A DNA stretch of 32,000 nucleotides, taken from an uncultured archaeon (lineage in GTDB: Archaea; Asgardarchaeota; Jordiarchaeia; Jordiarchaeales; Jordiarchaeaceae). The position numbers and the translations under genes are program-made. Shown piece by piece: positions 23,237 through 24,890 of this stretch (its first letter is position 1; each line of letters begins with the position of its first letter). The notes beneath the pieces were generated by a model. That model saw only the letters and a list, made by a program, of their open reading frames with translations. It was not told where the DNA came from and made no database searches. The stretch lies in contig CAZECW010000212.1 of assembly GCA_964510585.1 (NCBI GenBank), forward strand, positions 13,122-45,121. The letters are read 5' to 3'.

Positions 23237-23482
23237 TTTATAATCCCTCGAACATAACTATTGTAAGTTTCCGACTCTAAAAATATATCCCCAAAATTAT
23301 CTGTGCGAATCACGCTGTTTGAAGAATCAAGACTGGAAGGGTGGGGTGAACCCGGGTGATTCAGTGCTGAAGTGTTTCCCTCCCATACTTAAACTAATTC
23401 TTCGACTCAATTTCTGTGTTCTTGGAAAATTATAAAAGCCTGAATTTCGAAAATTTAAGGAAAAGCTTGGTGCATAATTAAG

Positions 23483-23623
23483 ATGGAAGAAAAAGTAAAA
23501 AAGGAAGTAGTAAAATCGGCAAAAAAGTTGGTAACAAAAGAAGTACAGAAACAGTTGGGGATTAAACCAAAGCAGAAAAAGCGCAAAAAGAAGGCAAAAA
23601 AAGTAGAAGTATACTACTATTAA
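23483..23623 (+). CDS. Putative 46-aa lysine-rich small protein (MEEKVKKEVVKSAKKLVTKEVQKQLGIKPKQKKRKKKAKKVEVYYY)
   Basis: ATG...TAA frame below the ORF-track cutoff. GGTG lies about 11 nt upstream and a TTATAAAA box about 50 nt upstream. 17 of 46 residues are Lys. Confidence 0.5.
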   Translation: MEEKVKKEVVKSAKKLVTKEVQKQLGIKPKQKKRKKKAKKVEVYYY

Positions 23624-23769
23624 AATCCAAAAAATGTTTTTATGCGGACACCAAAAAAGACAAAAAAGTCGCCCAACATGTGAATTCTCTGGATTCAGAA
23701 TAAGTTTCTTTGTTTTACCTGCAAGAAAGGTTTCCCCCTTATACTTCATAACAGTTTCCAAATACTGGG

Positions 23770-23965
23770 ATAGGCTTCCTGTGTTCTTTTTGACACTCTC
23801 CGCGACTAAAGTCGGGAGATTCTTGCTTCTGGCTCATCGGGAGCCTTCGAAGCAATGGGTGTGCCACCACCCAGTTAACACGCCCTTCCCTTTAGGGGAA
23901 CTGCGTCTATGTTGGCACCCTCATGGGGGCTGCGTCTTGTTTAGCCCCTTAAGCCCAAGCCAAAC
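23770..23965 (-). ncRNA. Putative TnpB omega-RNA/reRNA-like structured RNA (scaffold about 23965-23790, guide about 23789-23770)
   Basis: At least five short stems plus the right-end hairpin, ending in TCAA. The position matches reRNAs at IS605 right ends. Expression and boundaries are inferred. Confidence 0.5.
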
Positions 23966-24065
23966 CCTTCAGCTACCAACAACTATTTATATACCCTACT
24001 TTCAAATAAGCTTTTTGGCGATTCATCCCCACAACTAAAGTCGGGGGCTTTCTCGCCAAGGTTTT
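23790..24065 (-). mobile_element. Non-autonomous IS200/IS605-family mini-element (PATE/MITE-like), with no tnpA or tnpB
   Basis: Minus strand left end: TTAC|AAAACCTTGGCGAG-AAAG-CCCCCGACTTTAGTTGTGGGG. Right end: GAAT-CTCCCGACTTTAGTCGCGGAG-AGTG-TCAA. Both are subterminal imperfect hairpins sharing a GACTTTAGT core, with IS608-like guide/cleavage tetranucleotides. Confidence 0.85.
23984..23993 (-). promoter_or_regulatory. Archaeal TATA box inside the mini-element, pointing toward the right end
   Basis: TATATAAATA on the minus strand, preceded by purine-rich GAAAGTAGGG. It lies just inside the left-end hairpin, where the tnpB promoter would be expected. Confidence 0.5.
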
Positions 24066-24182
24066 GTAAATTTTTACAATGGGAGGTAATAAATATTAAG
24101 TATGCATCCCTCATGTTTTGGGTTTAGAATTTTTTTAAGGAAGGCTTGTTTTGGGAAAAAGGCTTAAAGTGAGAAAGGTGCT

Positions 24183-24890
24183 TTATTTTCGGCATAGAAC
24201 AAAGGTGATGGCTCCTTCCTTTATGCCAAGTCTCATAGATTGGAATCTTTTGAAGCCCAGTTTGGACAATTTTTTAACCAAAACATATTTGGGAAGAGAG
24301 GTGGAGAAGATGAATTTTCCTCCCTTTTTTGTAACCCGGTATATTTCTGCCAGTGCTTCGTCTCTTCCAATTAGTAGGGTGTCTAGCACTTCGTGGCAGG
24401 CGACTAGGTCAAAGGTGTTGTCGTCGAAGGGAAGCTTTCGTGCGTCAGCTTGCTGAAATTTGACTTTGTGGGATACACCTTCTATTTTAGCGTTTTCCTC
24501 CGCGTGTTCCATGGTGTTTCCGCTGACACCTGAGAGACTAAGTGGGGACCAGGTGTCTATTCCTATTACCTTGCATTTCTTGCAGGCCTTTGCAAGAGAT
24601 ATTGCCACCAATCCTCTACCTGTGCCAACATCCAACATTAAAGAATTTTCCTTAGGCTGAGCGAATTCCACAAGCAAAGTACTTTTCTTAACTCTAAGGG
24701 GAGTAGTGCTCTCATAGAACAATAACCCAACAATCATTGCCAACGCAATTACAATCACCGTGAAAATATATCTTACAACCAAATCATTAACAATGAGGTA
24801 AAGGATGAAACATAAAATAATTCCAAATAGGAGAAGACTCAAAATAAGCGGGGAATAAACTCCGTAACTTACATGTTCTTCCTCGGTCAA
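24183..24890 (-). CDS. Class I SAM-dependent methyltransferase with two N-terminal TM helices
   Basis: Motif I LDVGTGRG, QADARKLPFDDNTFDLV and EIYRVTKKGG, with a hydrophobic N-terminus. Confidence 0.88.
   Translation of the reverse strand: MTEEEHVSYGVYSPLILSLLLFGIILCFILYLIVNDLVVRYIFTVIVIALAMIVGLLFYESTTPLRVKKSTLLVEFAQPKENSLMLDVGTGRGLVAISLAKACKKCKVIGIDTWSPLSLSGVSGNTMEHAEENAKIEGVSHKVKFQQADARKLPFDDNTFDLVACHEVLDTLLIGRDEALAEIYRVTKKGGKFIFSTSLPKYVLVKKLSKLGFKRFQSMRLGIKEGAITFVLCRK

Follow-up and report, generated by a model that had tools for sequence, protein, structure and literature searches.

The window, that is, the whole 32,000-nt stretch of Jordarchaeia DNA analyzed here, carries between positions 23,790 and 24,065 a short mobile element without a protein gene, which reads on the minus strand. 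Together with the bases that adjoin it, the element is composed of the following parts.

23790..24065, minus strand: whole 276-bp protein-free IS200/IS605 mini-element (a PATE, termed A-type), delimited by aligning 31 full copies whose flanks are unrelated
24066..24069, minus strand: TTAC, target and left cleavage site in the flanking DNA, in register at 80 of 90 left junctions
24015..24059, minus strand: left end, with an outer stem TTGGCGA/TCGCCAA around the AAAG guide and a bulged hairpin, from sequence and fold
24053-24059 and 24015-24021, minus strand: outer stem arms TTGGCGA and TCGCCAA, read from the sequence
24048-24051, minus strand: AAAG guide, abutting the foot of the left hairpin, read from the sequence
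24027-24047, minus strand: left hairpin with arms CCCCCGAC and GTTGTGGGG and one bulged T, read from the sequence
23986..23993, minus strand: TATA-like box TATATAAA, from the alignment of PATE and IS left ends
23923..23975, minus strand: 5' module of the putative RNA, predicted by RNA folding to pair with the scaffold start and common to a second PATE family
23790..23922, minus strand: omegaRNA-type scaffold that shares homology with the tnpB 3' end and the adjoining right end, by covariance model R1 (160.2 bits)
23794..23822, minus strand: right end, comprising the GAAT guide, a bulged hairpin and a 4-nt linker, kept in all element families
23819-23822, minus strand: GAAT guide, 5' of the right hairpin
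23798-23818, minus strand: right hairpin with one bulged C, read from the sequence
23790..23793, minus strand: TCAA, right cleavage site and final bases of the element, GTCAA ending all aligned copies
23770..23789, minus strand: flank that a read-through omegaRNA would contain as its guide (AAAGAACACAGG...), by its position and by analogy with TnpB omegaRNAs

When the 31 full copies were aligned with 40 nt of flank, their similarity ended exactly at 24065 and 23790. An earlier note on this DNA had described two subterminal hairpins, their guide and cleavage tetranucleotides and an extent of 276 bp, all of which were recovered in place; since the edges were obtained independently from the aligned copies, this extent is correct. 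The attribution of AAAG/TTAC and GAAT/TCAA to IS608-type pairs also holds, as IS608 has the same four tetranucleotides, TTAC as CL, AAAG as GL, GAAT as GR and TCAA as CR (PMC5934647). In the window copy, the left hairpin includes one G.T wobble and its foot lies 18 nt from TTAC, a stretch holding one outer-stem arm and AAAG, while the linker between the right hairpin and the terminal TCAA is AGTG. The two ends are asymmetric, subterminal imperfect palindromes and not inverted repeats of each other; terminal inverted repeats and a target-site duplication, by which classical MITEs are defined, are both absent.

According to the ORF list, the open reading frames that overlap the element are spurious, apart from a remnant of a decayed TnpB tail. 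The previous statement that neither TnpA nor TnpB is encoded inside is accordingly correct with regard to intact ORFs, but it needs amendment in one respect: a tblastn search detected a decayed TnpB C-terminal tail in element copies, 60-65% identical over about 40 residues (TnpB residues 326-366). Next to the right end, two candidate ORFs overlap each other, one on the plus strand (23483-23623; 46 aa, Lys-rich) and one on the minus strand (23327-23761; 144 aa, Phe/Leu-rich, no Pfam match).

The window's own assembly (G000; 3.78 Mb in 217 contigs) was searched for further copies. BLAST returned 144 matches to the element, including 31 of full length with 84-97% identity (at least 90% in all except one) and about 100 that are 140-nt pieces at contig ends; 40 or more matches have 91-100% identity. 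More than 100 of the 217 contigs terminate within the repeat. Because so many of the matches are contig-end pieces, this single repeat accounts for the fragmentation of the assembly into 217 contigs. Pattern counts gave about 90 left and 78 right junctions of the family, each with different flanks, and a covariance model of the right part gave 86 matches, approximately 71 of them belonging to the A-type family. The 276 bases in the window are one of roughly 75-90 copies.

Multiple copies inserted behind TTAC had been anticipated and were indeed observed. TTAC stands in exact register at 80 of the 90 left junctions, the remaining 10 being one-base register slips that come from the gap-free pattern match, and it precedes 30 of the 31 aligned full copies, the other being preceded by TCAC. 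In both the junction patterns and the aligned copies, the flanks at the right end contain no motif and target duplication is absent.

Outside this genome the family is sparse. No full A-type copy is present in the 40 relatives searched, five of which belong to the same genus and two of which are named Candidatus Jordarchaeia MAGs. Of 100 other genomes sampled from the phylum, 21 contain the scaffold family, with 1-16 copies each compared with 86 matches here, which makes the expansion species-specific. A recent expansion confined to this hot-spring Jordarchaeia species is one component of the overall explanation developed below, and it shares the high confidence placed in that explanation as a whole.

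Full-length relatives of the element reside in the same genome, where four Y1_Tnp loci were identified with Pfam. On contigs C7, C169 and C162, TTAC is followed by the left end, an AT-rich block, a Y1 tnpA (Pfam Y1_Tnp, E 3e-37 to 2.5e-32) and then tnpB. The left ends of these three are about 90% identical to that of the mini-element, and the TnpA copies next to matching left ends retain HLH as their HUH motif, while their catalytic Tyr lies in SYFVST. On C8, C45, C152 and C54, the 3' end of tnpB is followed by the matching right end, whose hairpin is distinguished from that of the mini-element by a compensatory C:G to T:A change. A parental IS with the same ends, as predicted in the earlier note, is thus represented by both its left and its right portions. 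The proposal that the element is non-autonomous and would be served in trans by a TnpA encoded elsewhere gains support from these full-length IS copies, which share its ends and are predicted to encode an intact Y1 TnpA.

Two further loci of this group deserve description. At C81:5075-6787 (L034), a 571-codon open frame fuses a decayed tnpA, with YIQ in place of the HUH motif, to an intact-looking tnpB without an intervening stop; the tnpB frame continues past the right end, and its stop codon is reached only in the flank. In addition, C98:1-350 and C130:1-350 share an identical 322-nt flank that ends in TTAC and is followed by two different left ends, one A-type and the other diverged, which look like alternative occupants of a single target site in the population.

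Precise empty sites were found for two insertions in congeneric Jordarchaeia genomes, and these sites read TTAC and then directly the right flank. The copy at C72:57273-57551 is precisely missing in G001 and G004. G004 also reads ...AACTTAC|TCATAATAACGAC, in which the left flank of the window copy is joined straight to the right flank of the copy at C72:56538-56816, and this left flank adjoins the DNA from C72:56817 onward in three congeners, at L093 (G004:C219), L092 (G003:C158) and L050 (G001:C568). The earlier expectation of vacant sites was therefore realized by precise TTAC|right-flank sites in congeners, but not in the predicted form, as TTAC+AAAGAACACAGG is absent from the 40 relatives and from the own assembly. 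The right flank of the window copy is located elsewhere in the relatives; in G003 and G004 it lies near C79-like DNA, where intergenic divergence is too high to delimit a site. Since the predicted empty site is missing and the right flank lies elsewhere, in the window contig the left junction belongs to one insertion and the right junction to a different one. This contig is either recombinant, by exchange (inversion) between copies, or a chimeric assembly join at the repeat, and contig joins across the repeat in general may be recombinant or chimeric. In a strain of approximately 97% identity from hot-spring runs X3 and X4, the left flank continues beyond 24066 into dissimilar DNA for about 3.8 kb, and the contigs of four public DNA runs break inside the repeat.

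A vacant arrangement is also found within the own assembly, where C154 has TTAC directly before a flank that in C12 lies behind an element copy. Empty sites in relatives and within the assembly, in conjunction with roughly 75-90 copies that have identical ends and unrelated flanks, leave only a vanishingly small probability that the hairpins are a chance pair or that the element is an immobile relic of one ancient insertion.

The comparison of C154:1-2321 with C12:8676-9153 revealed a larger difference. C154 begins with the right half of C12's element copy and continues for about 2 kb up to a TTAC, directly behind which stands the C12 right flank at 98% identity; the 2-kb segment is missing from C12. 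An adjacent deletion, recombination between two copies or strain variation could each be responsible. Elsewhere, the 50 nt beyond the right end of the C62 element are found again in identical form on C75 (C62:12656-12707 and C75:18685-18736), directly after TTAC+AA and in otherwise unrelated surroundings, possibly as a result of flank transduction or as a vacated site.

The interior of the element was then compared with the resident IS copies. Its right-hand 133 bases align with the last tnpB codons and the right end of the copies on C8 and C81. The omegaRNAs of TnpB are encoded across the tnpB 3' end and the right end. On the evidence of this homology, the interior is not filler: its right-hand 133 bases are an omegaRNA-type scaffold derived from the 3' end of tnpB, and covariance model R1 scores 160.2 bits at C212:36911-37043 (window 23790..23922).

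The predicted fold was assessed across five families with the common core GTTAACTGGGYGRTGGCACACCC, namely the mini-element, the resident tnpA-tnpB IS, the C81-type IS, a 205-nt PATE from G004 and a PATE of about 400 nt from the own genome. RNAalifold, applied to the element families, returned a stem in which both partners of five pairs are changed. The helix that closes a variable insert was misaligned by MAFFT and was instead compared by direct tabulation of end pairing and by model-based alignment. It reads TTGCTTC/GAAGCAA in the mini-element and TTGGAGG.../...CTTCCAA, TGCTTCTGAGG/CCTTAGAAGCA and TTGCA.ATAGCC/GGCTGT.TGCAA elsewhere, so that its sequence differs while its pairing is kept in all five families. 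In the model-based alignment across families, which was fitted to the model and is thus biased towards the structure, the paired cells amount to 93.9%, and changes on both sides affect 19 of the 37 pairs, compared with 3-8 in slid controls and with 500 shuffles, none of which reaches the observed value. This compensation may date from ancestors that carried tnpB, before the PATEs came into being. Conservation among the PATE copies themselves is no sign of selection, because the copies are only about 5% diverged. A long-range helix, UGGCAC/GUGUCA, is invariant across families, and covariation for this reason neither supports nor rejects it.

The minus strand of 23770-23990 is predicted to fold with -83.6 kcal/mol (z = -3.66), which is more stable than all 200 shuffles. 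A local hairpin suggested by the single-sequence fold, UGGGUG/CACCCA, was discarded because a T-to-C change in the IS families breaks it. No Rfam 15 family matched the window at gathering score or positions 23400-24500 at E values up to 10, and the weak matches seen within 23400-24500 lie outside the element and look like chance.

Scaffolds of this kind are not restricted to the A-type family. A 5' module like that at 23923..23975 is also present on C58, C107 and C21. Other PATE families comprise one of about 400 nt in this genome (C58:28222-28557, C107:6905-7233, C21:224-398 and C32:13043-13215) and one of about 205 nt in the congener G004, with at least 10 copies (loci L059-L067). In all three PATE families the order is TTAC, left end, AT-rich block, scaffold and right end.

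The AT-rich block, which contains TATATAAA and follows the left end in each of these families, aligns with a block of the full IS that precedes the tnpA start codon by about 29 nt and is equally far from the left end. Given that the host is an archaeon, this block would be a TATA box, and TATATAAA can be regarded as a presumptive archaeal promoter element inherited from the full IS. As both the TATA-like block and the entire scaffold are kept, each copy can probably give rise to a guide RNA in which the right flank of that copy acts as the guide.

It is nevertheless possible, if on the whole rather unlikely, that the element is a PATE mobilized by TnpA in trans whose scaffold is a mere passenger left by the deletion, neither usefully transcribed nor used by TnpB. 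The family is young (91-97% identity), so that decay would not yet be visible; the TATA-like block is among the stretches that vary most between copies; and no cognate TnpB with the same scaffold has been assembled. This reading does not readily explain why three independent PATE families retain about 120-200 nt on the right side, when 45-56 nt of the IS608 right end were enough to obtain robust TnpA complexes in vitro (PMC3201880), or why the same AT-rich block precedes the scaffold in every one of them. Variants common to at least three copies also fall mostly in predicted loops, which is a weak argument since the structure was derived from the same consensus.

If guide RNAs are made, their possible targets can be sought with the right-end flanks as guides. 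For 145 such flanks in the own genome, no exact match to TTAC plus the 16-mer was found apart from the element's own vacant site, and only two further matches exist, each with 2 mismatches. The possibility that the guides are aimed at distant targets was rejected on these grounds.

The candidate protein partners have an unusual active site. C81 encodes a full-length TnpB of 424 aa with the RuvC-III Asp and a zinc ribbon, whereas for the autonomous IS only fragments of TnpB are assembled, with the middle third missing and residues of about 158-242 on no contig. The A-type scaffold is identical to that of no assembled tnpB, and the C81 scaffold has a large insertion relative to it. In the C81 TnpB and the G004 L068 TnpB, the RuvC-II Glu is replaced by Gly (VLGRL and VVGNL), and Gly is likewise found at the expected RuvC-II Glu in the autonomous-IS TnpB. 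These Glu-to-Gly proteins fit the 'rearranged' TnpB class of Altae-Tran et al. (2023), which is predicted to stay active (PMC10691335).

The lack of the canonical RuvC-II Glu could also be read in another way, namely that some or all copies have been exapted as small-RNA genes whose RNA, alone or with a rearranged TnpB, regulates near or distant genes. A precedent exists in Halobacterium, where a PATE-derived RNA is expressed and its overexpression improved growth (PMC4615843). Such a role is very improbable here: the guides offer only the two 2-mismatch matches mentioned above, the copies occupy unrelated contexts with junctions of the transposon type, and the Glu-to-Gly class is predicted to remain catalytically active (PMC10691335). 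A broader proposal, in which the roughly 75-90 cassettes form a genome-wide, trans-acting guide set for the Glu-to-Gly TnpB and the genome is actively reshuffled through the copies, is improbable as well. Reshuffling would proceed by recombination between copies or by TnpA-mediated adjacent deletion. Two arrangements hint at it, the window copy joining flank A to C where relatives have A beside X, and the absence from C12 of a 2-kb segment that ends in TTAC.

Taken together, the explanation that accounts best for the locus, and in which high confidence is warranted, is that the element is a PATE, a gene-less deletion derivative of an IS608-like IS that would be mobilized in trans, carries a putative guide RNA and has recently expanded. 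Judging from the signatures at its ends, TnpA supplied by the full-length IS copies would recognize both bulged hairpins on the minus strand, with the AAAG and GAAT guides directing cuts 3' of TTAC and 3' of TCAA, respectively. The element would leave as a single-stranded circle and re-enter 3' of another TTAC without target duplication. The scaffold and the TATA-like block would give rise to a guide RNA with the right flank as its guide, and TnpB made in trans may use this RNA to cut the vacated TTAC+flank, after which repair would restore the element.

Among characterized systems, IS608 of Helicobacter pylori provides the model for the ends. The two have in common the four tetranucleotides, bulged subterminal hairpins and insertion 3' of TTAC without duplication. 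Spacing is slightly different, with 18 nt from the left hairpin foot to TTAC here and 19 nt in IS608 (PMC3201880), and with TCAA ending 8 nt past the right hairpin foot here but lying 10 nt 3' of the foot in IS608. In contrast to IS608, the present element lacks tnpA and tnpB, is unrelated in its remaining sequence and resides in an archaeal host. With regard to the interior, the likeness is to TnpB omegaRNAs of the ISDra2 type, in which the scaffold also stops at the right end, the flank is the would-be guide and a multi-helix fold covaries; unlike these, the scaffold described here has no tnpB in cis and no Rfam match, and its RNA is putative.

In REPINs, short REP sequences are arranged as inverted pairs, and a single domesticated RAYT gene serves them. 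Like the A-type family, REPINs are short, carry hairpins, reach high copy numbers and, being non-autonomous, rely on a Y1 HUH enzyme, whereas the present family has asymmetric IS ends, a TTAC target and a transposase encoded inside ordinary IS copies. The closest counterparts are the PATEs of IS200/IS605, which occur in Haloquadratum walsbyi and Halobacterium. These PATEs also have no protein gene, share their ends with resident IS605-family elements and need TnpA in trans. The family described here differs from them in its Asgard (Jordarchaeia) host, in its unusually high number of ~75-90 copies within 3.8 Mb, which fragments the assembly, and in a likely archaeal TATA box upstream of the scaffold. 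Among the papers that a literature search listed, none mentions Jordarchaeia. Meers et al. (2023, doi 10.1101/2023.03.14.532601) described PATE-like elements in Geobacillus stearothermophilus and stated that an omegaRNA is often encoded by PATEs and has to be used by TnpB in trans. Guide-RNA-carrying PATEs are thus already described, and the element adds a clean Asgard example and no new principle: the modular arrangement of TnpA, TnpB and omegaRNA in trans, as in Geobacillus, is predicted to extend to Jordarchaeia at high copy number.
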